Source: Ignavibacteria bacterium (GTDB taxonomy: Bacteria > Bacteroidota > Ignavibacteria > Kapaibacteriales > UBA4661). Taken from it: a stretch of 64,000 nucleotides of DNA. The translations under genes were made by a program, and so were the position numbers. Under the pieces are notes generated by a model. The model was not told where the DNA came from and did no database searches. It saw only the letters and a list, made by a program, of their open reading frames with translations. The DNA is taken from NCBI GenBank assembly GCA_013298775.1, contig JAAFIV010000014.1, forward strand, positions 30,197 through 94,196. The letters are read 5' to 3'. This document shows, one piece after another, positions 1 to 63,509 of the stretch; positions within the stretch are counted from its first letter, which is position 1; each line of letters begins with the position of its first letter.

Positions 1-180
1 TGCCGACCATAAGGAAAAGCGGTGCGCCCGGCGGGTGCGGGACTTGCTGATAAACAGTTGCGGCAGTAAATTCCGCGCAATCCCAGAAGGGAAGCGTCTG
101 TTGGACGGTGAGCAGATACGTCGTGAGGGAAATCACGAACACCAATGCCGCAAATGCTCGGTTCAGGTTTTGTGTGTTCA
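1..180 (-). CDS. DUF2723-like membrane protein, N-terminal 60 aa (partial, continues beyond window start)
   Basis: Reverse translation from ATG at 180-178 gives MNTQNLNRAFAALVFVISLTTYLLTVQQTLPFWDCAEFTAATVYQQVPHPPGAPLF; the FWDxxEF...HPPGxPLF motif is typical of the DUF2723/TMEM260-like glycosyltransferase-fold family. Confidence 0.45.
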
Positions 181-983
181 TAGAAAAAAATCGTGGAGAA
201 AACGAAGATGAAAATGAAAAATGTGTTCGTGGGATAGAGTGCCAGTAAAGTACACCAGCAAAGTACAATTTACCAAAGCCTCAAAGTTAGGGCTTTTTAC
301 GATACTAACGAACAAAAAAGAGTGAAGAAATGTTAAGGTTTGTGCTTTTCAATCATTCCAAAAGAACCCAGATTTTGCACTTTTTTGATGAATTGCTCCG
401 AAATGGTCAAAAAAAAGCCTCTAGGACATTTCCAAAGGAATAATGTTGGTAGCGGTAGAAAAATGCCCTAGCTTTGCACCCATATTTATTACGCTGTTGT
501 TATGTTTTGTAGTTCCGTTTGTATGCCTGTCTGTATCAGGCTTTTAGGGGAAATAGTATTATCGAGAAACAGCGCAAAGTTCAGAGGAAAGGCACTTTTT
601 GAGTATCATTCAAGGAGTGTTTTTTGTAGATTACGTGCTTGTTCAGCATGTACTCTGTTCTTTTTTTGCTAAGGTTTGTGCCGGATACCGATAGATATTG
701 CTCTTGTTTTTCCCTCAGGCTATCGTGTTTTTGTCTTGCCCGCCTTGCACTTTGTTCATGTTTGTTTGTAGGAATTGTTTGTAGAAAACTCTGTTCCGTT
801 GGAGCATGGGTAACTGGTGTTCTGTTTCTCTGCGGAACGTCTCTGGTACTCGTATGCGCTGCCGGATGGTATCTATTGTGTGCGCTATGTTTGTAGCGTG
901 CATTCCTACTATTTTGAACAATGCTCGTGCTGCTGCGTTATGTACGTGCTGCGTGCCTTCGTTATCTTGCTATACTTAACTTT
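181..983 (+). promoter_or_regulatory. Unusually long (about 800 nt) non-coding leader/promoter region upstream of the LOV kinase; G+T-rich, A-poor from about 600
   Basis: No credible ORF (only a Cys/Leu-rich low-complexity 85-aa frame); T-rich tracts; small stem (aagcc...ggctt) plus T4 at about 275-300. Confidence 0.3.
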
Positions 984-2171
984 ATGACCATTCCCTACAA
1001 TTTGCTGGACTATGTTCTGCAACATGCCCCCATTGGTATTACCCTTGCCGATGCCTCTCGACCAGACACGCCGATTGTCTATACAAATGCAGGTTTTACG
1101 AGCATCACAGGCTATTCTTCGGAAGAAACTATTGGAAAAAATTGCCGCTTTCTCCAAGCCCACGACACGAATCAACCGTCGGCGCGGCTTATGAATCACG
1201 CAATGAGCAGCGGAAAGGGCTGCCGTGTGGTGCTACGCAATTATCGCAAAGATGGCACTCAGTTTTGGAATGAAGTTACGCTCATTCCGATTTTTGATAA
1301 AAGCAATGCAGTAACGCATTTTCTCGGCGTTCAGCACGACGTAACGTCTCAGCGTCAGTACAATGAACTCTTGATTGCCTACGATGTTATCAATGAGCAA
1401 ATGGTGAATCTTGAAGCACAAAGCGAAGAACTACGCCGCGTGAACGACCAGTTGCACGAAAGTAATGCTCGTATCAACGACTTAGCTGCCCTTCTTGCCC
1501 ATGACCTGCAAAACCCCATTTCAGCAATGATGAGCTTTGTTGAGGTGTTGCGCGATACCGACCTCAATCTTTCGCAAGAAGATATGAAGATGTATGCGAA
1601 TGTCGCCTATGAAACAGCAGAGCGCATCCTGCCGATTATCAAAAAGCTCATGGATGTAGGACGCTTGGCGAAGCAGCAAATAGAGCCGCTTAAACTTTTT
1701 GTCCTGAATGCCTCCACCACCGCAGAGCTGTTGGCAAATGGATATCGTTATCGTGCGGAAACAAAAAATATTCAACTTGATATTGATATTCCCAAAGAAT
1801 TTTGGGTGATGGCAGACGAAAGCGCACTGTATGAAGTGCTGGATAATCTTATCTCCAACGCTCTTAAATACACGCCGCAAGGGAAAAAGATTGGTGTGCG
1901 GATGAGTTCCGCCGCCAATACAAACTCTAATGTTGTGCGCATTGAAGTCTGGGACGAAGGACAGGGTTTCAGTGAGACTGACCTTCAAAAGATATTCCGC
2001 CAAAGTGGAATGCTTTCTGCACGCCCTACGGGTGGAGAAAGCTCCACTGGGCTGGGCTTGATGTCGGTAAAAAGCCTCGTTGCGCAGATGAAAGGAAAGG
2101 TATGGTGCGAGAGCGTTTGGGGCGAAGGGGCGCGGTTTTTTGTAGAATTACCTTCGGTGCAAAAACGATAA
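984..2171 (+). CDS. LOV-domain (blue-light, flavin-binding PAS) sensor histidine kinase
   Basis: Canonical LOV signature GKNCRFLQ with the flavin-adduct cysteine; PAS core (YTNAGFTSITGYSSEE...RKDGTQFWNEV); coiled-coil linker; H-box AHDLQNPISAM with His; N box ISNALKYT, G1 VWDEGQGF, G2 GGESSTGLGL. ATG at 984 (MTIPYN); the upstream part of the 921 ORF looks non-coding. Confidence 0.85.
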   Translation: MTIPYNLLDYVLQHAPIGITLADASRPDTPIVYTNAGFTSITGYSSEETIGKNCRFLQAHDTNQPSARLMNHAMSSGKGCRVVLRNYRKDGTQFWNEVTLIPIFDKSNAVTHFLGVQHDVTSQRQYNELLIAYDVINEQMVNLEAQSEELRRVNDQLHESNARINDLAALLAHDLQNPISAMMSFVEVLRDTDLNLSQEDMKMYANVAYETAERILPIIKKLMDVGRLAKQQIEPLKLFVLNASTTAELLANGYRYRAETKNIQLDIDIPKEFWVMADESALYEVLDNLISNALKYTPQGKKIGVRMSSAANTNSNVVRIEVWDEGQGFSETDLQKIFRQSGMLSARPTGGESSTGLGLMSVKSLVAQMKGKVWCESVWGEGARFFVELPSVQKR

Positions 2172-2179
2172 CTTCACCT

Positions 2180-2911
2180 ATGCTCTCTACCGAGAAAGAA
2201 TTACCGCGCCTTTCGCGCCTCAGCGCAACGCTGACCTTGCTTCAAACCAAGCGTATTGTGAGTGCGCCGGAGCTTGCCGCACACTTCGGCGTGAGCGTCC
2301 GCACGGTGTACCGCGATATTCGTGCGTTGGAGGATTCTGGTATTCCGATTTGCACCGAAGAAGGCAAAGGGTACTCGCTCGTGGAGGGTTTTTCGCTGCC
2401 ACCCGTGATGCTGAGTCAGTCGGAAGCAAATGCACTCTTGACGGCAGAGAAAATTTTGGTGAATAATAGCGATGCCTCATTAGCAAAAGAATATCAAGCA
2501 GCAATAGCAAAAATCAAAGCCGTGATGCGCTTTCCAACGAAAGAGAAGTTGGAAATCCTGCAAAAGCGCATGGTTGTTCGCAAGTCGCGCACAGAAGCGC
2601 AATCCCCGCAAAGCACGTATTTATCAACCTTGCAGATGGCAATTACCGATTCTTTTTGTGTGGAGATTGTGTACGAATCACTTCACGACCACGCCACTAG
2701 CGAACGTGTTGTAGAGCCGCTTGGCGTGTACACAAGCCAAGATGGGAACTGGGTATTGGTAGCGTGGTGCCGTCTGCGCAATGAACATCGGTCGTTTCGC
2801 TTGGATTGTATTCGCCGTCTCACCCTGCTCTACGAGCAATGCCCAAAGCCAGAGTTTAGTTTAGAGGAGTATTTTGCCGAGTGCCTGCGTCTGCAGAAAT
2901 ACCATACTTAA
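2180..2911 (+). CDS. WYL-domain transcriptional regulator (YafY-like; HTH + WYL + C-terminal extension)
   Basis: N-terminal DeoR/HTH_11-like helix-turn-helix (TKRIVSAPELAAHFGVSVRTVYRDIRALEDSGIPI); WYL hallmark GNWVLVAWCRLRNEHRSFRLDCIRRL; ATG at 2180, 9 nt after the kinase stop. Confidence 0.8.
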   Translation: MLSTEKELPRLSRLSATLTLLQTKRIVSAPELAAHFGVSVRTVYRDIRALEDSGIPICTEEGKGYSLVEGFSLPPVMLSQSEANALLTAEKILVNNSDASLAKEYQAAIAKIKAVMRFPTKEKLEILQKRMVVRKSRTEAQSPQSTYLSTLQMAITDSFCVEIVYESLHDHATSERVVEPLGVYTSQDGNWVLVAWCRLRNEHRSFRLDCIRRLTLLYEQCPKPEFSLEEYFAECLRLQKYHT

Positions 2912-7285: not shown

Positions 7286-10276
7286 TTATTGGAAATTGTA
7301 AGTAATACTAAATCGGAATGAGCGTGGTGGCGAAATATTACCAGAAGCAGTTCCACCAACATTTGGACCACTTGTACTCAAGAAGGATAATTCGGGGTCA
7401 ACAAACTGATTTGCTGTAACAACAAGTGCGTTACGTAACGATGCTGACAGCGTTAAGCCCTTGAAACCGAATAATTCTTGTGGAATACGATACGCAAGCG
7501 AAATTTCACGAATCTTGAACCAAGTACCATCTACCATCAGCGAACCAGAAATATCGTTGCGCTGATACCGCATACGTCCTAAGCGAGCAGAGTCTGTAAA
7601 TTTTGGGATAATTGAATTATCAACAAGGTCTTGATAGAACGGATACACGAAGCGTCCCGTAGCAGCATCACGCACAGGCGTTGAAGCGAATACGTTTGGA
7701 TAACGGCGACCCCAGAAGTGATTGACCACCTGAAAACCCGTTGCAAACTCAGCAGTAACGCTGAGTGTAAGATTTTGTGCGATAGTCGCATCAAGACCAA
7801 AATTTGCTGTTAAGGTTGGAACAGGACCATTGATGAGCGAATCACGGCGCACCTGACCAGTTTGGTAGGTGCCATCTGCATCACGCAATGGAACGTTAAT
7901 GCGCCATGAAGGCAATGAATAACCTTCTTCTACGCGCGTAGGAATATAGCCAAAGCTACCCCCCAACTGGAATGGAGCAGAACCACCAAGGCTTTCAACG
8001 CGATTACGCAATGTTGCTACCGAGGCGCGGAGAGCTAAATTTAATACGCCTGGCTCATCAACAACGACGGTATTAAGTCCAAGCTCAATACCTTGATTGG
8101 AGATAACACCAACGTTTTTATCCTGCGTGGTAAAACCTGTAACGGGATCTACTGGAACTCTAAAAATGGCACCACGAGTAGTGCTGTTGAAATAATCAAA
8201 CGTCAGAGAAATTTTATCTTCTGCAAGGGCAATATCGGTACCGATTTCTAATGCACCAACGCGCTCAACTGTTAAATTAGCATTACCCGGAATAGAAGTA
8301 ATACCGCCTTGTGCGCCACCAATACCCAATCCAACTTGGTCTTGGAACGGACGTGAAATGAAAGTACGGTCGCGTGTAAATGGCGTTGGGAAAAGTCCTG
8401 TTTCGCCGTAGGAAGCGCGTAGCTTGAAAAGCCCGATGGTTTCTTTGAGCGGTGCCCAGAATGCCATATCTGCAATATTTATGGCAATTGCACCCTTTGG
8501 AAAGAACTCACTTGCGATGCGGTCTCCAAAGGTAGAATTAATATCAAAACGACCACCGAGGTCAATGAAAATAACATCCAATAATTCTGCTTTGTAGTTT
8601 GCATACAAGCCACCAGTGAAAACCTGGAGCGGGGATTCCTCCGTATTTTTTACAGCTGTATTGGTGAGAATGCTTGTTCCTGGCAATCCAAATCCTGTAC
8701 CTTCTGCGAAAAGAGGACGTTCATCGCGGCGGAATCCTTGCGCACCAACAGCAAGATCGTGTTTGAGCACGTCAGGAATAACGGGTAGTTTGAGCGAACT
8801 AAGGAAATCAAAGGTAACAATGAAATTTTCACGGTCTGTACGCTCAATGCTACCGTTATTTTCAACGTTGATTGGCTCAAATTGGCGTGTTTCGCTTTTA
8901 CGATAATCTGCCCCAATAGTGAAGCGGTTATCCCAGCCTTCTACAGGGGAAACTTTGTAGGTGAGCGATTGAATAATGCGGTGAGCAACTTCATCGTTCT
9001 CGAAACGTGTCCAGTAGTTTGCCAAACTGTCCAAGGAGCGTTGGCGCGAGGAAGCACGCAGAGTTGGGTCGGTAATATTGTCAAATCGCCAGCGTGGATT
9101 CGCGGGGCTATTGGGTTGATTTGCTTCCATTTCGGTAATCTGATACAAACCTTGACCACTATTGTTACCAAATGTCCGACCAAATTGGTTACGTACATAA
9201 CTCATCGAAAACTCAAAGCTATTCCTTCCAAACGTAGCACGTAAGCCGCCGTTCATCGAATATACACGTTCAAAATTCTGGTTTTTTGGTGAAATACCTG
9301 TATTATGAAACATTCTTGCAGAGGCGTTATACGTCAGATTTTCTGCTCCGCCAGTAATGCCAGCTTTGTATTCTTGGTAGAAACCTTGTTGGAGAGCTAG
9401 TTGTGCGGTTAATGGGTCGAATACAAATTTTGTCTCTGGCACATCAATTCCTGAGGTAATGCCAATGTTATATTTGGGCGAACCTGGAACACCTTTTTTG
9501 GTAAAAATTTGGATGACACCATTAGCAGCTTCCGAGCCGTATAGCGTCGAAGAAGCTCCACCTTTTAAGAACTCTACACGCTCAATATCGCCATTGAGAA
9601 GATCGCTGAGTGCGGAAGTAGAAACACCACCAAAGTCTGAACCAAGGCGGAAACTTTCGCCTGCATCTACACGCACACCATCAATGTAGATAGCTGGTGT
9701 TGTCGGACCGCTTGCAGATTTTACGCCCCGCGTAGCAATACGCGCTCCTGCACCTGGCTGACCCGTTGCAGAAAACGATGTCAAACCTGGTACGCGACCT
9801 TGAATAAGCTGGTCAAAACTCCGTGCCGTAGAACCTTCTATCTGCTTAACGTTAATAGACTCCACTGAATATGCAAGTTTTTTGCGCTCTGTGCCTGCTC
9901 CCTGACCTGTTACAACAACTTCATCGGTCTTGGAAACAGAAGAGGCAAGCACAAAATTGACTTCTTGCGGTGCCTCAAGAGCGATTTTTTTCTTTTGTTC
10001 TTTGAAGCCAACTGATGTAACTGAAACACTATACTCACCTGCCGCCAAGCCTCTAATGCTATACGCACCTTGGATATTTACAATGGCACCACGCGGAGAA
10101 CCGCCGCCTAATGGCGTAACGGTAACACGTGCGCCAGAAACTGCCTCGCCAGAACGGTCCTTGACCGTACCCTTGATTTCGCTTATTTGAGCAAAACCTT
10201 CATTTGACGCTATACCGAATGTAACACCAAGAGCGACAAGGAAAGGCAGTACTCGAAGGAGTAATATACTTCTCAT
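7286..10276 (-). CDS. SusC/RagA-family TonB-dependent outer-membrane receptor
   Basis: Signal peptide; carboxypeptidase-regulatory-like N-domain (GTVKDRSGEAVSGARVTVTPLGG); TonB plug (DEVVVTGQG...IESINVKQIEG; VEFLKGGASSTLYGSEAANGVIQIFTKKG); about 1000 aa barrel. Confidence 0.9.
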   Translation of the reverse strand: MRSILLLRVLPFLVALGVTFGIASNEGFAQISEIKGTVKDRSGEAVSGARVTVTPLGGGSPRGAIVNIQGAYSIRGLAAGEYSVSVTSVGFKEQKKKIALEAPQEVNFVLASSVSKTDEVVVTGQGAGTERKKLAYSVESINVKQIEGSTARSFDQLIQGRVPGLTSFSATGQPGAGARIATRGVKSASGPTTPAIYIDGVRVDAGESFRLGSDFGGVSTSALSDLLNGDIERVEFLKGGASSTLYGSEAANGVIQIFTKKGVPGSPKYNIGITSGIDVPETKFVFDPLTAQLALQQGFYQEYKAGITGGAENLTYNASARMFHNTGISPKNQNFERVYSMNGGLRATFGRNSFEFSMSYVRNQFGRTFGNNSGQGLYQITEMEANQPNSPANPRWRFDNITDPTLRASSRQRSLDSLANYWTRFENDEVAHRIIQSLTYKVSPVEGWDNRFTIGADYRKSETRQFEPINVENNGSIERTDRENFIVTFDFLSSLKLPVIPDVLKHDLAVGAQGFRRDERPLFAEGTGFGLPGTSILTNTAVKNTEESPLQVFTGGLYANYKAELLDVIFIDLGGRFDINSTFGDRIASEFFPKGAIAINIADMAFWAPLKETIGLFKLRASYGETGLFPTPFTRDRTFISRPFQDQVGLGIGGAQGGITSIPGNANLTVERVGALEIGTDIALAEDKISLTFDYFNSTTRGAIFRVPVDPVTGFTTQDKNVGVISNQGIELGLNTVVVDEPGVLNLALRASVATLRNRVESLGGSAPFQLGGSFGYIPTRVEEGYSLPSWRINVPLRDADGTYQTGQVRRDSLINGPVPTLTANFGLDATIAQNLTLSVTAEFATGFQVVNHFWGRRYPNVFASTPVRDAATGRFVYPFYQDLVDNSIIPKFTDSARLGRMRYQRNDISGSLMVDGTWFKIREISLAYRIPQELFGFKGLTLSASLRNALVVTANQFVDPELSFLSTSGPNVGGTASGNISPPRSFRFSITYNFQ

Positions 10277-11940: not shown

Positions 11941-12576
11941 TCAGTGAAATTGCTCCAAGAAGGTTTTGAGTTGGTCGAAGCAGGGATGGTCGAAGTTCCA
12001 GACCTTTTGCTGCGCCGCAAGCCCAACCTGATAGGTAAATGGCGTTGCAATGGACAAATACGCCAGTGCCTGACGTTTTTGATACTTTACGGTTTCGCTG
12101 CTCATTCCTGTACAGCGCATGAAATCATTGATGCAGCGTAAAGAATCTTCAGAAATAGACTGGAGACACAAATCTTCCAACATCCCAGCATCGTGATTAT
12201 TGGGCATCACGAATATCGCAATTTGTGGCGAGCCACTTGATAAGCTGACTAGCTGCGTTGGTGCGACAAAGCCCGCTTTTTCAAGATGATATGTGAAACT
12301 GTTAAAAGTAGATTCCGCTTTCTCTACATCAGCATCTGCCACAAATCCTATCTTCTGGACGTTCTTTACTCCTGGTCTAACGGGGAGCGAGCGAATAGTT
12401 GGCTCAAATTCTGGCTTTCCTTGAATATCAATGCACTGAATACCAGTAATGTCAAGGTGTTTGAGCATTTTTTCAATCAGAAGTTCTTCGTCTTTTCCCT
12501 CAAGGATTAGGATATTTTTTGCAATAAGCTCTGATGAATTTTTCGGTGTATCTGTGCCTGGAAGAGTAGTATTCAT
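11941..12576 (-). CDS. Small TOPRIM-like protein (DUF4435/DUF4276/DUF3226-type), partner of the upstream ABC-type ATPase; candidate effector nuclease
   Basis: 211 aa. N-terminal ILILEGKDEE (Toprim-like conserved Glu), IGFVADADVEK (DxD), later acidic cluster FVMPNNHDAGMLEDL. ATG overlaps the ATPase stop by 4 nt (ATGA at 12573-12576). Confidence 0.5.
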   Translation of the reverse strand: MNTTLPGTDTPKNSSELIAKNILILEGKDEELLIEKMLKHLDITGIQCIDIQGKPEFEPTIRSLPVRPGVKNVQKIGFVADADVEKAESTFNSFTYHLEKAGFVAPTQLVSLSSGSPQIAIFVMPNNHDAGMLEDLCLQSISEDSLRCINDFMRCTGMSSETVKYQKRQALAYLSIATPFTYQVGLAAQQKVWNFDHPCFDQLKTFLEQFH

Positions 12577-13559
12577 CGAATTTCCCAGCCTTTCTGCGTC
12601 ATAAAGCGGAGATTTTCCCCATCAATTTTCACCGCTCTATGCTCCTCGCCATCACGTTCCAAACGAAAAACGCGCACGATATCCTCACCAAACAAATTCG
12701 CTTCCTGCACCTGCGTGAGTGCCGCCAAACACTCGTAAGAATGCGTTGTTGCGAAGACTTGGACGTTGAATTCTTTTGCGGCTTTCAAAACAGCTTTCCA
12801 AAGAATGGTAAGCGTGGAATAGTGCAAATCATTGGAAATTTCATCAACGAGAGCAATACCGTTTTCTGCCGATAACACATTAACAAGAATGGAAAGAATG
12901 CGACGAATGCCATCGCCCATAACGCTGATGGGAACGAGTCTTGGCAAGCCAATGTCGCAGTAAATCGCGCTTTGCGCACCAAGTCGAATGTCTGAAATAG
13001 CAGCATCAACCTCTGCCAGTGCAGTGATGATGCTTTGTTCACGCTTCTGCTCAATAATATTGCTTAAAAGCTGGTCGAGTTGGTCGGTTAAGTTCTTTGG
13101 ATGCAACCACGATGCAAGGAATAAAGGCTGTGGATGGTGTTCATCGTCCGCACTTTGCACATAATCATATCTTTCTACATTAGTGGAAGTCCCGACGCTT
13201 CTTGTTTGTACAATCCCGTAGTCTTTTACTACTTTGTTGGATGCCGCACCATTGCTGCTTGCGTAAAGTGGTTCGACCTCAACTATATTCATACTATTAT
13301 CTTGGCATTGAACCTGTATTCGCAAGCGATTTTGCGGGTCTAATTTCCGAAAGAGTAATAGTGCTTCATTTATCGTTACTTCAGGCATATCTCGAAAAGC
13401 TGTTTGTGAATAAGCACCATTCCCTGAACAAATAGCCTCCAACACCGACGTTTTCCCACTATTATTCTTTCCCACAAACACATTCACCTGAGCAAAATCA
13501 CTGATTTCCAGCGATTTGATACCGCGAAAGTTTTGGATGTTGATGGACGTAAAAGCCAT
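12573..13559 (-). CDS. ABC-type AAA family ATPase (AAA_21/AAA_15-like, SMC/RecF-like fold)
   Basis: Walker A GKNNSGKTS near the N-terminus; Q-loop; signature-like MGDGIRR; Walker B IALVDEI; H-loop TTHS; about 328 aa with no fused effector domain. Confidence 0.8.
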   Translation of the reverse strand: MAFTSINIQNFRGIKSLEISDFAQVNVFVGKNNSGKTSVLEAICSGNGAYSQTAFRDMPEVTINEALLLFRKLDPQNRLRIQVQCQDNSMNIVEVEPLYASSNGAASNKVVKDYGIVQTRSVGTSTNVERYDYVQSADDEHHPQPLFLASWLHPKNLTDQLDQLLSNIIEQKREQSIITALAEVDAAISDIRLGAQSAIYCDIGLPRLVPISVMGDGIRRILSILVNVLSAENGIALVDEISNDLHYSTLTILWKAVLKAAKEFNVQVFATTHSYECLAALTQVQEANLFGEDIVRVFRLERDGEEHRAVKIDGENLRFMTQKGWEIR

Positions 13560-16998: not shown

Positions 16999-17068
16999 GG
17001 AGTGTCTGCGCTACCACTTGTTTGAGGTTTTATGCGGCTTCGGTAGCACAGACACTCTTGTCTGTGCC
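16999..17068. repeat. Family B hairpin repeat
   Basis: gacgcagacaggagtgtctgcgctacc ... cggtagcacagacactcttgtctgtgcc. Confidence 0.65.
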
Positions 17069-17092: not shown

Positions 17093-18970
17093 CTACAACT
17101 CGCGGCGCAGGCGTGCAGGGGGAATCGCCATCAGGTCGCGGTATTTTGCAACGGTGCGGCGGGCAATTGTGAAGCCGTGTTTTGCCAGCTCTTGCACGAG
17201 TTTATCGTCGCTGAGAGGTTTGCTTTTTGGCTCTTGCCCAATAAGCTCTTTGAGTTTTTCTTTGATAACACGGGTGGAAATTTCATTGTCGCCATCGTCC
17301 TCGTCATCATCGTCTGCCGTAGAAGCCTTGCCATTACTTGATTTTGCGGAAAGCGAGCCGTTTGCAAGAGGGTCTTTCGGCATTGGCAAACCTTCGCTGA
17401 AAAAGTAGCGCAATTCAAACACGCCAAAATCCGTCTGCGTGTATTTGTTGTTCACCACGCGGCACACGGTGGAAATATCCACGCCCGTATCCTCGGCAAT
17501 ATCCTTGTAAATAAGCGGGCGAATGGAGCTTTTTCCATGAATAAAAAACTCACGCTGACGGTGGACAATCGCTGTCATCACGCGCATCATCGTATGCCGA
17601 CGTTGCTTGAGCGCGAGGATGAGGAATTTCGCATCATCATACTTTTGCTTCAAAAATTGGCGCGTGTCCTTGTTCAATTTCTGACTTTTCATGCCCTTTT
17701 TCGTGAACTCGCGCACTTGATTTTTCATCTGCTCGTACATTTTGTTCACGCGCACGGTCGGTACGCGGCTGTCGTTCAGTTGAATGAGGAAGTCGTCTTT
17801 TTCTTCGTCGAAATGAATGAGAAAGTCGGGAACAATAGAATTGGTGCCGCTTCCAGAGTCGCCACCGCCTGGCTTCGGGTTCAGGGCGCGAATTGCCTTC
17901 AGAGCCTCGCGCAAATAGGTTTCATTCACCTTCAATTCCCGCATGATGACTTCGTAGTGCTTCATTTTGAAGGCATCGTAGCTGCGTTCCAGCACCAACA
18001 CAGCGAGTTGCTGCGGGGCGTTCAGCTTCGGCAAAGCGCGTAACTGCGCCAGCAAGCACTCGCGGAGGTCGCGTGCGCCAATGCCGGGCGGCTCCAGCAC
18101 TTGAATTTCCAAGAGTATTTCTTCGACCAATTCCACCGTAACGTGCTGCATTTGTGCGGGTGCGGCGGGATAGTTCTGTGCTTTCGGAGTAAGTTTTTGT
18201 GCGGGTTTGCGGGTGTAGGAAATTTCGATATTATCAAGATATTCTCCCGCAGATTCGTAATCGGCGGCATCGTAATCGTCGTCGTTGTAGGACGAAAGAA
18301 GATTGGCAGAAAAATTATTAGAAGAAGGCGCAGCGAGACCATATTTGGTGCGGTATTCGCGGGAACGCAGGTCGTTCAGCGCATCAATTTTTTCATTCGC
18401 CGCAATCACAATTTCATGCAAATCGCGCTGCAAATAGCCTGAGGATTCGATACTTCCCAAAATTTCTTCGCAGATAATTTGCTCTTCTTCGGTGAGATTG
18501 AGCATGCGCAGTTGGTCTTCCAACTCATCAAGAACGGTGCGGTGTTCGGGCATGGGAAAGCCTTCGCCGTCTTCATCGTCGCCGCCATATTTTGCGGGAT
18601 TTCCTTCATCTTCAATAAAATCAATCCACGTCTGCTCTTCAGCATTTACGCCGTTTTCACGGTCGAATACGTCAAAATCATCATCGGAACTGGTTTGCGT
18701 GGCAAATTCATCGGGTGTGGTTTCTTCGGGCGTATCGGCTTCGTTGGGCGCGTCTTCGGTGGTGGTTTCTACCTGCGTCATTCCTTCTGGTTCATCCCCA
18801 ATTTCACTATCGCCCGCGCCTTCTTCGAGCATAGGATTCATCTCCATTTCCTGCGAAATATGCTGCTCTAGCTGCAAGCCCGTGAGCTGCAGCAATTTCA
18901 GATATTGCACCTGCTGAGGAGTGAGTTTCTGCTCTAAACCAAGTTCCAGACCAAGTCCAAGACCAATCAT
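17093..18970 (-). CDS. rpoN: RNA polymerase sigma-54 factor
   Basis: N-terminal Gln/Leu-rich activator-interacting region (LTPQQVQYLKLLQLTGLQLEQHISQEMEMNP); acidic region; C-terminal RpoN box ARRTVAKYRDLMAIPPARLRR. Confidence 0.92.
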   Translation of the reverse strand: MIGLGLGLELGLEQKLTPQQVQYLKLLQLTGLQLEQHISQEMEMNPMLEEGAGDSEIGDEPEGMTQVETTTEDAPNEADTPEETTPDEFATQTSSDDDFDVFDRENGVNAEEQTWIDFIEDEGNPAKYGGDDEDGEGFPMPEHRTVLDELEDQLRMLNLTEEEQIICEEILGSIESSGYLQRDLHEIVIAANEKIDALNDLRSREYRTKYGLAAPSSNNFSANLLSSYNDDDYDAADYESAGEYLDNIEISYTRKPAQKLTPKAQNYPAAPAQMQHVTVELVEEILLEIQVLEPPGIGARDLRECLLAQLRALPKLNAPQQLAVLVLERSYDAFKMKHYEVIMRELKVNETYLREALKAIRALNPKPGGGDSGSGTNSIVPDFLIHFDEEKDDFLIQLNDSRVPTVRVNKMYEQMKNQVREFTKKGMKSQKLNKDTRQFLKQKYDDAKFLILALKQRRHTMMRVMTAIVHRQREFFIHGKSSIRPLIYKDIAEDTGVDISTVCRVVNNKYTQTDFGVFELRYFFSEGLPMPKDPLANGSLSAKSSNGKASTADDDDEDDGDNEISTRVIKEKLKELIGQEPKSKPLSDDKLVQELAKHGFTIARRTVAKYRDLMAIPPARLRREL

Positions 18971-25235: not shown

Positions 25236-25316
25236 CTTCAGTGGCACAGACATTCTTGTCTGTGTTTTCCGCCTACACTCCGCACTAACGCTCACAGACA
25301 AGAATGTCTGTGCCAC
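25236..25316. repeat. Family B hairpin repeat
   Basis: cagtggcacagacattcttgtctgtg ... cacagacaagaatgtctgtgccactattg. Confidence 0.7.
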
Positions 25317-25473
25317 TATTGATGAAATTTGTCGTGGAGCTAACAAAAAAACTCAGAAAATACTCAACACACACTCTCGGCAGAGAGCAGAATACAAAAG
25401 CCGTCCGTCGCAGACCGCAAATGCCAAGCATTCATGCGCTTTACAACGGACGGCTTTTCCAATATAGCTAAAT

Positions 25474-30430: not shown

Positions 30431-30528
30431 TTGGTAGCGCAGACAAACTGAGGGAAGCCCTCAGTTTGTCTGCGCGGTGTTAGTGCGGCATTGAAGAAGG
30501 CACAGACAAGAGTGTCTGTGCTACTAAA
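30431..30528. repeat. Family B hairpin repeat
   Basis: ttggtagcgcagacaaactgagggaagccctcagtttgtctgcgc ... ggcacagacaagagtgtctgtgctactaa. Confidence 0.7.
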
Positions 30529-32438: not shown

Positions 32439-32516
32439 TAGTGGCACAGACATTCTTGTCTGTGAGTATTGGCGTGTTTCAGGCGACAAACACAGACAAG
32501 AATGTCTGTGCCACTG
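32439..32516. repeat. Family B hairpin repeat
   Basis: agtagtggcacagacattcttgtctgtgag ... cacagacaagaatgtctgtgccactgaagc. Confidence 0.7.
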
Positions 32517-34209: not shown

Positions 34210-34282
34210 GTGGCGCAGACAAGAGTGTCCGCGCTACCCAGATAAACACTGGCTTCGGTAGAACAGACACTCTTGTCTGTTC
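34210..34282. repeat. Family B hairpin repeat
   Basis: tggcgcagacaagagtgtccgcgctaccc ... ggtagaacagacactcttgtctgttcc. Confidence 0.7.
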
Positions 34283-41790: not shown

Positions 41791-41872
41791 GTAGTGGCAC
41801 AGACATTCCTGTCTGTGAGTATTAGTGCGAGTTTTAGGTGGAAAACACAGACAGGAATGTCTGTGCCACTAA
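41791..41872. repeat. Family B hairpin repeat
   Basis: gtagtggcacagacattcctgtctgtgag ... cacagacaggaatgtctgtgccactaaaac. Confidence 0.7.
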
Positions 41873-49487: not shown

Positions 49488-51359
49488 TTATTCGCGGTCT
49501 TCATTTTGGCGTGGCGACCCAAAAATGCTTCCAAAGCGAGTAAAAAACGACGAGCGCGGCGGCTCCGATACTGATGTTTCAGCTTCAGATTTCGTCCGCT
49601 CGCTCGTGCTTTTTTCGTGTGCTGATGCGCTTTGTGAGGTAGGCTGCGACGCTGATGATTCCGTTGTTAATGATTCTGTCGTCAATGATTCCGTTGTTAA
49701 TGATTCTGTCGTTAATGATTCTGTTGTCAATGATTCCGTTGTGCGTGATTGTTGTGCGCCAGACGTGGCGGAATCTACGGCAAAATCGAAGCTCTTGAAC
49801 ATTTCTGCAAGGTCGGCGGCTTGCATAGCAAACGACGGATGGTCGAACTGCGCTTCCAATGGTATTCCTGATGCAGGTACTGATGACGCAAGCGGCTCGG
49901 TAATTTCAAACTCTGCATCAATCACGGAAGTTGTCGTGTTGGGTGCTTGATTGCTGGCTTGATTGCTGGCTTTGTGTGGAGTTTCAGGTGCTGTTGAAAT
50001 TGGTTGATGAAGCGAGTTCTCAGGTGATTTTTCAGGTAATTTTTCAGGTAATTCCTCATTGGTCAAGATTGTTGCAGGTGAGTTTTCATGCGCACTCTGG
50101 GCAATATCGCTTGTTTCGGTGTGGTCTTGTTCAATTGCTTTTTCTGTCACTTTGAATGAAGATTGTTCCGACGGTATTGTTGCTTGCTGCGTCGTTTCTG
50201 CTTGTGTTGATTCCGAAACAGGAGAAGGCGTACTCGCTAGATGTGCTTCCGCGCTTGCAACGGTGCGCTTTGTACGGATTGCTGTACCGATAGCCAGTTC
50301 GCCAATGGTATCGTCGGCTTTGAGTATCGGCTCTTCGTGCGCTGGAAATTGGGGTGCAAAATTGAGTGGAAGTGTTGTCGTGTCCTCTATTGGTGCGGGT
50401 TTGGGGAGTTCGTCGTTGGCAATGGCGAGTTCTAATTTCGCAACAATATCGTTCAGCACGTGGAGAAACTCGCGTTGCCCAACATAGCGCAGGGAACGAG
50501 TTTTCATCAGCTCTTCCAGCTCTTGTGCAATGCGGTAAATACCTTTGTCATCCAAGAAAATAATCAGCGCGGGTGTAGGAACTTTGCCGCGATATTGCTG
50601 TAATGCGCGGTCTCCAGCGTGAATTTCATCGAACATTTCAAACATTGGCGTAAGCAAATCCGTAAATTCTTCGGGCGAATACTCCAAAATCACGTCGTTA
50701 TCAACGGTTTGCAACACGCGGTCGAATTCCACCACCGACACTAAACTGGTATCAACCGTGAAAGGTCGCACAGAATCTGGCTTTGTGAGGTTGTCCTGCA
50801 AGCGAGTATCGGTGCGGTCTGTGGGGGATTGTGTGGCTGTACCTGTGAAAGCTCCATTGCCGCCATTTGCTTCCGCACCTGATTTTTCCTGCTGTTTCGT
50901 GCTAATCCAGTTCCGCACACCATCCAACATGTAATCGTATTCCAAAAAATAATCCATGCGAAGCATTACTTCGCGCAAGGTTTTCGTGGGTTCGCCGCGA
51001 TAGACAAACCATTTCAGCGTTGTGCGCGGACGCAAGATGTAGTTGAAGCGAGTTTTTACGGCAAGGTCAATAGCAGCGTTCAGGTCTTGGTGGTCGTAGC
51101 GGGCGGATTCCATCAGCACGTGGTCAAGTTCGCTGAAAAGCCCTGAGAGTGCGGGGTTGGTGGTGTCGAAGCGAGGATTAGCGGCGCGTTGCATTTGTTG
51201 GTCAAAAATCCACCATTGCGATTCCGCACCAAAGAAATTTCGGTAAAAGACGGCAATATCCGCCCTGCGACGAATGTCGTCCCAATAGACGTACTGCGAA
51301 GCACCAGCCATGCGCTGTGTGAGCAATTCTTTTGCGCGTTGTATTTCTCGTTCAAACAT
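49488..51359 (-). CDS. Hypothetical protein (623 aa) with conserved-looking N-terminal about 330 aa and acidic low-complexity C-region including (TESLT)x5
   Basis: 15-nt tandem repeats at about 49640-49740 encode TESLTTESLTTESLTTESLTTESLT; no domain recognised by eye. Confidence 0.5.
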   Translation of the reverse strand: MFEREIQRAKELLTQRMAGASQYVYWDDIRRRADIAVFYRNFFGAESQWWIFDQQMQRAANPRFDTTNPALSGLFSELDHVLMESARYDHQDLNAAIDLAVKTRFNYILRPRTTLKWFVYRGEPTKTLREVMLRMDYFLEYDYMLDGVRNWISTKQQEKSGAEANGGNGAFTGTATQSPTDRTDTRLQDNLTKPDSVRPFTVDTSLVSVVEFDRVLQTVDNDVILEYSPEEFTDLLTPMFEMFDEIHAGDRALQQYRGKVPTPALIIFLDDKGIYRIAQELEELMKTRSLRYVGQREFLHVLNDIVAKLELAIANDELPKPAPIEDTTTLPLNFAPQFPAHEEPILKADDTIGELAIGTAIRTKRTVASAEAHLASTPSPVSESTQAETTQQATIPSEQSSFKVTEKAIEQDHTETSDIAQSAHENSPATILTNEELPEKLPEKSPENSLHQPISTAPETPHKASNQASNQAPNTTTSVIDAEFEITEPLASSVPASGIPLEAQFDHPSFAMQAADLAEMFKSFDFAVDSATSGAQQSRTTESLTTESLTTESLTTESLTTESLTTESSASQPTSQSASAHEKSTSERTKSEAETSVSEPPRSSFFTRFGSIFGSPRQNEDRE

Positions 51360-60260: not shown

Positions 60261-61424
60261 TTATGCCGTATATAAGGGAAATGTCACCGTGAACGTCGAG
60301 CCTTTTCCCAGTTCGCTTTCGCATCGAACGCTCGCATTCATTTTTTCAGCAAATTTTTTGACAATGGACAAGCCAAGCCCCGTTGAATCTTCCCCACCCG
60401 TCGGCATGGCACTGAGGCGCGTGAATTTTTGAAACATCCGCGTTTGGTCTTCGGCACTAATTCCTGGACCTTCGTCGCGCACGGAAAAGCGGATGGTACC
60501 TTCATTTAGCACAGTTTCTAGCCAAATATTTGTTCCGGGAATGCTGTATTTGATGGCATTGGAAAGAAGATTTTCCACGATATGGTGGCAGAATACTTCA
60601 TCGCCCCAAATCATGTCGTGTGTTTGCGGAGTAACGTGAAGCGTAAGCTGCTTGGCTTCGGCACGGAGGCGAAAATCTGCCGCAATAAGCTCGGCTAACG
60701 CGGAGAGATTGAAAGGAATAATATTGATGCTGAGATTGCCTGATTCCAGCGCGTGCATATTCAGCAAATTGCGAATAAGATTACTCATTCGCGATGTCGC
60801 ATTCGTGATTTCCCGTCCGAATTTGCGGTAGTCTTCGTGCTGAAAGCTCAGTTCCTCGCCGCTTTGGATAATATCGCCAATGCCGATAATTGCGTTCAAG
60901 GGATTCTTCAAGTCATGGACAATAATATCCAGAATCTCGCTTTTCTCGTGGTTTGCAGCCTGTAATTCTTCTAATGTTTTTGTCAGCGCGACCTTTTCTT
61001 CCGAAAGGAAGAAGTGGTCGAAACATGCGCGAATGATTTCTAGCAAATCGGCATTGCGCCAAGGTTTGGTGAGAAACCGATAGACATTCCCACGATTGAT
61101 GCTATCGGTAATATCTTGCACATCGGTATAGCCCGTCAGCACAACCCGCACGGTTTGTGGCACATAGCGGATGGATTCCGCAAGAAATTCCGTTCCTGAC
61201 ATACCAGGCATTCGTTGGTCGGCGAGAATAACCTGCGGAATAAAGCCTTGTTTGAGTATTGCCAGTGCCTCTTCGCCCGAAGTTGCTGTTTTGACAGTAT
61301 AATGCGATACAAACAGCAATTCGAGCGTTTTTACTAAATCTGGTTCATCGTCCACAATTAAGAGCTTTCTGTCGGAGAGCGCGTCGGTAGTGGCTTCTGT
61401 ACCAGAGGCTTGTATTTTGAGCAT
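60261..61424 (-). CDS. Hybrid receiver-histidine kinase (N-terminal REC + HisKA + HATPase_c)
   Basis: REC: KLLIVDDEPD...ILADQRMPGMSGTEFL...K; H-box IVHDLKNPLNAI; N LSNAIKYS, G1 VRDEGPGI, G2 GGEDSTGLGL. Confidence 0.85.
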   Translation of the reverse strand: MLKIQASGTEATTDALSDRKLLIVDDEPDLVKTLELLFVSHYTVKTATSGEEALAILKQGFIPQVILADQRMPGMSGTEFLAESIRYVPQTVRVVLTGYTDVQDITDSINRGNVYRFLTKPWRNADLLEIIRACFDHFFLSEEKVALTKTLEELQAANHEKSEILDIIVHDLKNPLNAIIGIGDIIQSGEELSFQHEDYRKFGREITNATSRMSNLIRNLLNMHALESGNLSINIIPFNLSALAELIAADFRLRAEAKQLTLHVTPQTHDMIWGDEVFCHHIVENLLSNAIKYSIPGTNIWLETVLNEGTIRFSVRDEGPGISAEDQTRMFQKFTRLSAMPTGGEDSTGLGLSIVKKFAEKMNASVRCESELGKGSTFTVTFPLYTA

Positions 61425-63360: not shown

Positions 63361-63444
63361 TGCTAATGTTGGTAGTAATGTTGGGTTTGGTTGTTCGCCG
63401 TTGGTGGTGGAAGTGGAAATAATGGAAGTAAACGCCCACAAACA

Positions 63445-63509
63445 ACAGTGTCTGTGCCATATTGCCACGAAGAAAATTTCATGGCAACATACCACAGACA
63501 CTTCTTTTG
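63445..63509. repeat. Degenerate family B repeat
   Basis: acagtgtctgtgccat ... accacagacacttcttttg. Confidence 0.4.

Follow-up and report, generated by a model that had tools for sequence, protein, structure and literature searches.

Whether a member of the Ignavibacteria carries a genuine blue-light photoreceptor kinase, how such a kinase would transmit its signal and to which partner it would pass it are the questions raised by a gene near the start of the 64,000-nucleotide stretch of contig JAAFIV010000014.1 analysed here (hereafter the window). An earlier reading made from the letters alone (the sequence-only reading) had described this gene as encoding a canonical, flavin-based blue-light sensor histidine kinase of the LOV type. 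Our analysis supports the prediction through the domain order, the flavin-contact residues and the best matches in the PDB, which are themselves LOV kinases, and we conclude, with a probability of about 0.8, that its product is a LOV photoreceptor histidine kinase that is soluble, forms homodimers and binds flavin. The evidence supports a protein that works like the chimeric kinase YF1 and natural LOV-HisKA kinases, with no genetically linked regulator.

Pfam places PAS_9 over residues 25-121 (3.7e-23), HisKA over residues 165-228 (3.4e-11) and HATPase_c over residues 278-391 (1e-23), and since all three scores lie well above the gathering cut-offs, the domain assignment is not a product of chance; the first of these matches is also the outcome of the PAS_9/LOV check that the sequence-only reading had proposed. 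That reading had singled out the motif GKNCRFLQ with its adduct-forming Cys, which we located at residues 51-58, with the Cys at position 54. The LOV search pattern of Losi, [NS]-x2-[FPGHSA]-x4-[GEQR]-x(9,11)-C (PMC4844311), is satisfied as well, by N35, F38, G43 and C54. When flavin-contact residues were read from sequence alignments with PDB entries, Cys54, Arg55, Gln58, Asn86, Asn96 and Gln117 were found at the flavin-contact positions of YtvA, PpSB1 and AsLOV2; Gln58, Asn86, Asn96 and Gln117 align with the isoalloxazine-bonding residues Q454, N482, N492 and Q513 of AsLOV2, and Arg55 aligns with its first phosphate-binding Arg, R451. These columns are invariant or nearly so among the relatives. 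The kinase half is equally complete: the H-box His lies in a two-helix dimerization and histidine phosphotransfer (DHp) domain, and the N, G1, F and G2 boxes of a HisKA-type kinase were all located, in agreement with the intact DHp and catalytic boxes claimed by the sequence-only reading. The sequence H-D-L-Q-N at His173 forms a DxxN motif, which we take to be associated with phosphatase activity.

Comparison with proteins of known structure points in the same direction. In a phmmer search of the PDB, the top matches were the full-length LOV kinases SB2F1 (8A7F and 8A3U; 3e-43) and YF1 (4GCZ; 1e-41), which align end to end; below them come dozens of LOV domains, among them those of YtvA, PpSB1, phototropins, aureochromes, Brucella LOV-HK and EL346. 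An AlphaFold2 model built with 31 aligned relatives (mean predicted local distance difference test score, pLDDT, 88.5) comprises a cap helix (residues 7-14), the PAS core, an uninterrupted helix (121-190), a second DHp helix (198-233) and an alpha/beta catalytic domain; within it the PAS fold of about 105 residues has its five strands and the expected helices at pLDDT >90. When this model was compared with the PDB by Foldseek, SB2F1 (8a6x) and YF1 (4gcz) again ranked first (E ~1e-28), with low global template-modelling (TM) scores, which we attribute to the longer linker and the monomeric state of the model.

Among known systems, YF1 (YtvA-LOV/FixL, 4GCZ) and SB2F1 (PpSB2-LOV/FixL; 8A3U, 8A6X and 8A7F) are the best counterparts both by sequence and by fold, sharing the order cap helix-LOV-linker-DHp-catalytic domain as well as solubility and a length of about 380 residues; they are, however, artificial chimeras, and their identity to the window protein is only ~25%. 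Natural counterparts with the same three domains are found among short LOV-HisKA-HATPase_c kinases from metagenomes (P0019, P0023, P0034, P0147 and P0176), which are 356-392 residues long, share NCRFLQ and have 30-39% full-length identity. The LOV kinases of the HWE/HisKA_2 type (Brucella LOV-HK, 3T50 and 6PH4; Erythrobacter EL346, 4R3A; Caulobacter LovK) have a homologous LOV domain (~1e-21) and embody the same concept of a histidine kinase controlled by blue light, but their kinase core belongs to a different family from the HisKA core found here, and EL346 ranks below YF1 by fold. For residues 7-132, the closest named LOV family is that of Bacillus subtilis YtvA (2e-41 in NCBIfam; PDB 2PR5, 2e-29), a LOV-STAS protein whose effector is not a kinase. 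Two NCBIfam whole-protein models were matched through the LOV part: NF052306, blue-light-activated histidine kinase, over residues 16-131 only (114.5 bits, 4.6e-33; cut-off 450), and NF052652, the YtvA family (142.1 bits; cut-off 250). Both scores fall short of the cut-offs because the effector domains differ, and on its sequence the protein is best classified as a HisKA-type LOV kinase outside the HWE-type equivalog of Brucella and Erythrobacter.

The points that weigh against a light-sensing kinase concern the phosphate end of the flavin site, a sister branch of the clade and the lack of a response regulator. In PpSB1, a conserved arginine of helix F-alpha, R70, forms a salt bridge with the phosphate of flavin mononucleotide (FMN) (PMC5314338). 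This second phosphate-binding Arg (R79 in YtvA, R467 in AsLOV2) is Asn71 in the window protein; the positions of PpSB1 R61 and R66 are occupied by Thr62 and Ala67, and Arg55 and the nearby Arg68 are thus the phosphate-site arginines that are left. The term 'canonical' used in the sequence-only reading was therefore slightly too strong: it holds for the motifs, but not for the second phosphate arginine. With these arginines replaced, cofactor affinity or photocycle kinetics may be unusual, and one may ask whether the domain binds flavin chiefly to sense redox state, or binds its cofactor weakly, so that light is a minor or absent signal. Related PAS-flavin sensors such as NifL do appear among the search matches. 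The LOV kinase LovK of Caulobacter reportedly integrates redox signals. Yet the protein retains its adduct Cys and all residues that contact the isoalloxazine ring, and the F-alpha column itself is variable: Arg is found in 129 of the 202 LOV domains of the relatives retrieved, including those of most of the short metagenomic kinases, and 73 (~36%) have no Arg there, so that the change to Asn71 alone does not predict a loss of function and does not exclude membership of the LOV family. We thus regard a chiefly redox-sensing or weakly binding domain as very improbable. Asn in this column is confined to the window protein and its two nearest orthologues, and we read Asn71 as a phosphate-site variant peculiar to the clade rather than as evidence against flavin binding; Arg68, three residues before it, might compensate.

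A photoreceptor kinase is also not what every member of the clade appears to be. Among 1.84 billion representatives clustered at 50% identity, about three clusters (P0005, P0008 and P0125) were recognised as the protein's own clade. In a sister branch (P0006 and P0125; loci L008-L010), GCDFFFLI or GQDFHLLL stands in place of GKNCRFLQ; the motif lacks its Cys, Arg and Gln, and His replaces the Gln of the last strand. To judge from these replacements, the sister branch is presumably a former photoreceptor that is now light-blind, and because of these losses the clade is not uniformly constrained to sense light. The nearest relative of the window protein, at 78% identity, comes from the Candidatus Kapaibacterium metagenome-assembled genome PH2015_12D_48_15. 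This genome was recovered from cyanobacterial river mats, in a study of Phormidium mats in which Kapabacteria were reported (bioRxiv 10.1101/294421); in such a habitat light is a relevant cue, and we count this in favour of light sensing. Further orthologous loci were sought in genome contigs, where one close relative was found (L011, the same contig as that of the orthologous locus L001), and in metagenome contigs, where none was found, the window's own protein being absent from the contig index scanned. A literature search for LOV proteins in Kapabacteria found nothing specific.

The statement of the sequence-only reading that no response-regulator gene is adjacent was borne out and can be extended to the whole 64 kb. 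Pfam scans of all sizeable open reading frames (ORFs), together with phmmer searches of six-frame ORFs with receiver-containing relatives, revealed no stand-alone response regulator in the window, and the single receiver domain lies within a REC-HisKA-HATPase_c protein (60261-61424, minus strand) about 58 kb away. It is conceivable that this protein is a relay partner of the LOV kinase. The kinase cores of the two proteins share 32% identity, and both carry the lid motif LSAxPTGGExSTGLGL. No conserved response regulator was found beside the orthologues examined; with no stand-alone receiver gene in the window and no regulator shared by the orthologous neighbourhoods, the kinase is considered an orphan.

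A regulator with HTH_11 and WYL domains (Pfam; 2180-2911, plus strand) starts 9 nt past the kinase stop codon and is probably co-transcribed with it in the same operon. As a conserved output partner this regulator is ruled out, since it is absent beside every orthologue; there, the following genes are unrelated and encode a CDP-alcohol phosphatidyltransferase, a YebC-like protein, a phosphoenolpyruvate carboxylase and a hydrolase. Two genes downstream of the kinase lies a multi-PAS protein (3124/3199-5622, plus strand) with at least five PAS domains and a degenerate kinase end; its H-box, TQQLQTPL, has Gln for the phospho-acceptor His, no HATPase_c match was found in it, and it is likely a pseudokinase by these sequence features. 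Both genes belong to a 22-kb block (2172-24385), containing also, among others, a SusC/SusD pair, rpoN, an ABC (ATP-binding cassette) exporter, queD and queF, that separates the kinase from the CDP-alcohol phosphatidyltransferase/ATP-synthase operon, from which it is only 56 nt apart in the closest relative, L001; the block has the appearance of a rearrangement more than of a mobile island. The rpoN gene, encoding sigma-54, is at 17093-18970 (minus strand), and no sigma-54-dependent (NtrC-type) response regulator was found in the window.

How a photoreceptor kinase of this kind would transmit its signal is suggested by the linker between the LOV and DHp domains, whose length we define as the number of residues between the T of the D-V-T (D-I/V-T) motif and the phospho-acceptor His. 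In a heptad analysis, seven d positions in a row are occupied by Leu or Ile (L129, I136, L143, L150, L157, I164 and L171), two a positions are Asn, as in parallel dimeric zippers, and the helix 121-190 of the model covers the linker and the first DHp helix without a break. The linker has 51 residues in all close orthologues and 58 in the Cys-less sister branch, a difference of exactly one heptad, and we conclude that the heptad register is conserved. Among 57 measurable linkers in relatives, 43 have 17, 24, 31 or 38 residues, that is, 7n+3, which is also the rule for most of the short metagenomic kinases, in contrast to the 51 residues (7n+2) that occur only in the protein's own clade. The model of signalling by coiled-coil twist derives from proteins of the YF1/SB2F1 type, and in YF1 linkers of 7n residues give light-repressed and those of 7n+1 residues give light-activated kinase activity (PMC6798134). 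On our scale the YF1 linker, as counted by us from the PDB alignment, has 33 residues, 18 fewer than the window protein; because 51 and 33 differ in heptad phase, the polarity rule is not transferable, and the sign of the light response is not predicted.

Taken together, these features suggest the following mechanism. In the dark, FMN would be held non-covalently in the LOV core. Blue light would start the photocycle by inducing a covalent adduct between Cys54 and flavin C4a, and the accompanying change at flavin N5 would be read by Gln117 in the last beta strand. The signal would then pass through the cap helix and the 51-residue parallel coiled coil, an unbroken leucine zipper of the presumed dimer, to the DHp helices, where it would shift the balance between autophosphorylation at His173 and the transfer of phosphate to, or its removal from, a response regulator whose gene lies in another part of the genome.

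The choice of start codon bears on whether this protein would be anchored or targeted. The longest plus-strand ORF spans 921-2171, with the ATG at 984 in frame within it, and the public annotation (P0001; 416 residues, 100% identical) starts at ATG 921. A start there would add 21 residues, MLVLLRYVRAACLRYLAILNF, whose hydrophobic and basic composition would anchor or target the protein, and the closest orthologue, P0002, is also annotated with an N-terminal extension (414 residues) in which the sequence is partly kept. Its identity to P0002 is nevertheless only ~43%, with an indel, as against 78% for the remaining protein; the first Met of the more distant orthologues P0003, P0005 and P0006 is the equivalent of ATG 984; and in the orthologous locus L005 the codon aligned with ATG 921 is ATA. 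Conservation of the extension therefore looks like conservation at the DNA level, and we give little credence to an anchored or targeted product. Most likely, given these alignments, translation starts at ATG 984, which we use throughout (Table 1).

Table 1. Coordinates of the features of the LOV kinase gene and of the region upstream of it, in window positions
Feature	Position	Strand	Details	Basis
68-nt block	269..336	-	TAACTTTG at 282-289, minus strand	~85% identical in three genomes
Conserved box CGAAATGGTCAAAA	399..412	+	shared core GAAATGGTCA, 46 nt upstream of candidate -33	equal spacing in L005
Candidate LOV kinase promoter TTG-N20-TAGCTTTG	446..476	+		Bacteroidota-type -33/-7 pattern; conservation
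T- and G-rich stretch, candidate long 5' untranslated region (UTR)	481..983	+		composition; L001 alignment 72-74%, frame-breaking indels
Tandem 13-nt direct repeat TTGTTTGTAG(G/A)AA x2	762..787	+		conserved in L001, partly in L005
LOV histidine kinase coding sequence	984..2171	+	395 residues; ATG 984 to TAA 2169-2171
N-terminal cap helix A'alpha	1002..1025	+	residues 7-14, LLDYVLQH	AlphaFold2 helix; aligned with YF1/SB2F1 cap region
LOV (PAS) core	1029..1346	+	residues 16-121	Pfam PAS_9; NCBIfam YtvA_fam; PDB LOV matches to 1e-32
GKNCRFLQ flavin-adduct motif	1134..1157	+	residues 51-58; Cys54 codon TGC 1143-1145
Coiled-coil linker	1347..1499	+	residues 122-172 (51 residues)	heptad analysis; continuous model helix; linker lengths of relatives
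DHp/HisKA domain	1476..1682	+		Pfam HisKA; model helices 121-190 and 198-233
H-box HDLQNP (in AHDLQNP)	1500-1517	+	phospho-acceptor His173 codon 1500-1502
Catalytic ATP-binding domain HATPase_c	1815..2156	+	N, G1, F and G2 boxes present
N-box DNLISNALKYTP (includes DNLISNALKY)	1842-1877	+
G1 box DEGQGF	1953-1970	+
F-box IFRQ	1992-2003	+
G2 box GGESSTGLGL	2031-2060	+

Upstream of the gene, the sequence-only reading had noted an 800-nt non-coding G+T-rich leader. There is indeed a gap of 802 nt (182-983) with no conserved ORF, but it is a divergent intergenic region, shared with a TMEM260-like gene on the minus strand (start at 181), and its G+T richness is limited to the proximal ~500 nt: G+T is 64% in 481-983 (T 40%, G 24%), about 5 standard deviations above the window mean, whereas 182-480 is A-rich with a G+T of 45%. 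Conservation of the distal ~155 nt goes with that of the TMEM260-like gene, and a transcribed leader is an interpretation of what remains. In L005, which shares the TMEM260-like neighbour, alignment to window positions 1-336 is continuous at 79.6% identity. The 68-nt block within this part directly adjoins the conserved 5' end of that neighbour, the TMEM260-like gene, and TAACTTTG lies ~100 nt upstream of that gene's start, so that the block is most likely, from its sequence context, the promoter region of the neighbour and not of the LOV kinase; it folds into only a weak 7-bp hairpin, with no covariation.

Several comparisons bear on the idea that expression of the photoreceptor is governed by the rest of the region, acting either as a structured cis-regulatory 5' leader or as an independent small RNA. 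A long gap precedes every orthologous locus (802 nt in the window, 814 nt in L005, ~760 nt in L003 and 639 nt in L008). The upstream region and the coding sequence align with L001 without interruption, at 72-74% identity for the former, with indels of 1, 5, 7 and 13 nt, and 74% for the latter; the neighbouring ATP-synthase operon is 85-87% identical in the two genomes, yet at least one gap of ~100 nt inside it fails to align, which suggests that the region upstream of the kinase is under some constraint. Within the leader, conservation is highest in 735-800, the block that contains the tandem 13-nt repeat. The promoter-like site of the window corresponds to TTG-N20-TAAGTTTG in L001 and, approximately, to a site in L005; if it is the promoter, the 5' UTR would be ~500 nt long and coincide with the T- and G-rich stretch, whose RNA folding z-score is -2.2 only.

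Set against a structured leader or small RNA are the Rfam searches, which gave no match in the whole window at the gathering threshold or in 100-1100 at E<=1, and the 14 'compensatory' pairs reported by RNAalifold, which carry little weight because only two sequences, the window and L001, could be aligned. A short leader could result instead from another -7-like box at 886-893, which, however, has no counterpart in L001. The Bacteroidota-type -7 box was rejected as a general promoter signal: TAnnTTTG occurs 50 times in the window against 41.7 expected, and 10 of the 50 sites are intergenic, in DNA that makes up 16% of the sequence, so that neither set is enriched and the promoter assignment is one by conservation. 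A sigma-70 consensus scan gave no more promoter matches than shuffled sequence, and the box at 399-412 is not repeated above chance elsewhere in the window. We regard these candidate promoter and leader assignments as weak, and a regulatory leader or small RNA, while possible, as a tentative proposal that we would not favour. Two further candidates were discarded. A small upstream protein was ruled out, since no translated match to relatives exceeds 32 residues and the same DNA blocks give matches in several reading frames and on either strand. An inverted repeat (402-413/981-992) over the start codon was ascribed to chance, being one of six similar pairs and not found in L005, with a first arm that lies upstream of the candidate transcription start.

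Elsewhere in the window, a dispersed palindromic element of ~80-100 nt was found at 25240-25317, 32440-32515 and 41793-41871, with partial copies at 17036-17066, 30466-30528, 34251-34280 and 63431-63464; it is also present in L001, at 5-74 and 9146-9255. Its arms, AGTGGCACAGACATTCTTGTCTGTG and CACAGACAAGAATGTCTGTGCCACT, flank a variable centre of ~27 nt, and each arm contains an 8-bp hairpin; all copies are intergenic, and it looks like a repetitive extragenic palindromic (REP) element or a miniature inverted-repeat transposable element (MITE). A DUF3226 protein and an AAA_15/AAA_21 ATPase, encoded next to each other at 11941-13559 (minus strand), are a gene pair that we suspect of being defence-like. 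A 623-residue ORF (49488-51359, minus strand) has no Pfam match and includes the most strand-skewed stretch of the window (plus-strand G+T ~65% at 49.6-50.4 kb), which suggests a compositionally biased product.

LOV histidine kinases are a well-known kind of photoreceptor, well understood and much used in optogenetics, so that one more member is in itself unsurprising. The traits peculiar to the clade, namely the Asn at F-alpha, the 51-residue 7n+2 zipper and the long conserved upstream region, are minor. That this Kapabacteria-associated clade forms a distinct signalling variant, with an out-of-phase zipper of 51 or 58 residues and control by a U-rich 5' leader of ~500 nt, a distal promoter and an operator box, seems to us unlikely; the zipper does lie one residue out of phase with the linkers of the 7n+3 relatives, and in YF1 a one-residue shift is enough to invert the response to light. 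Independently of this, a natural linker of such length and regularity, set in an uncommon heptad phase, could help to test the idea that coiled-coil twist determines signal polarity, and Asn71 offers a naturally occurring variant of the FMN-phosphate site. For the organism, the gene documents a probable light sensor in the Kapabacteria, a lineage that is found with cyanobacterial mats, is not itself phototrophic and has not been cultured; this sensor may tune the behaviour of its bearer to the day/night cycle of the mat.

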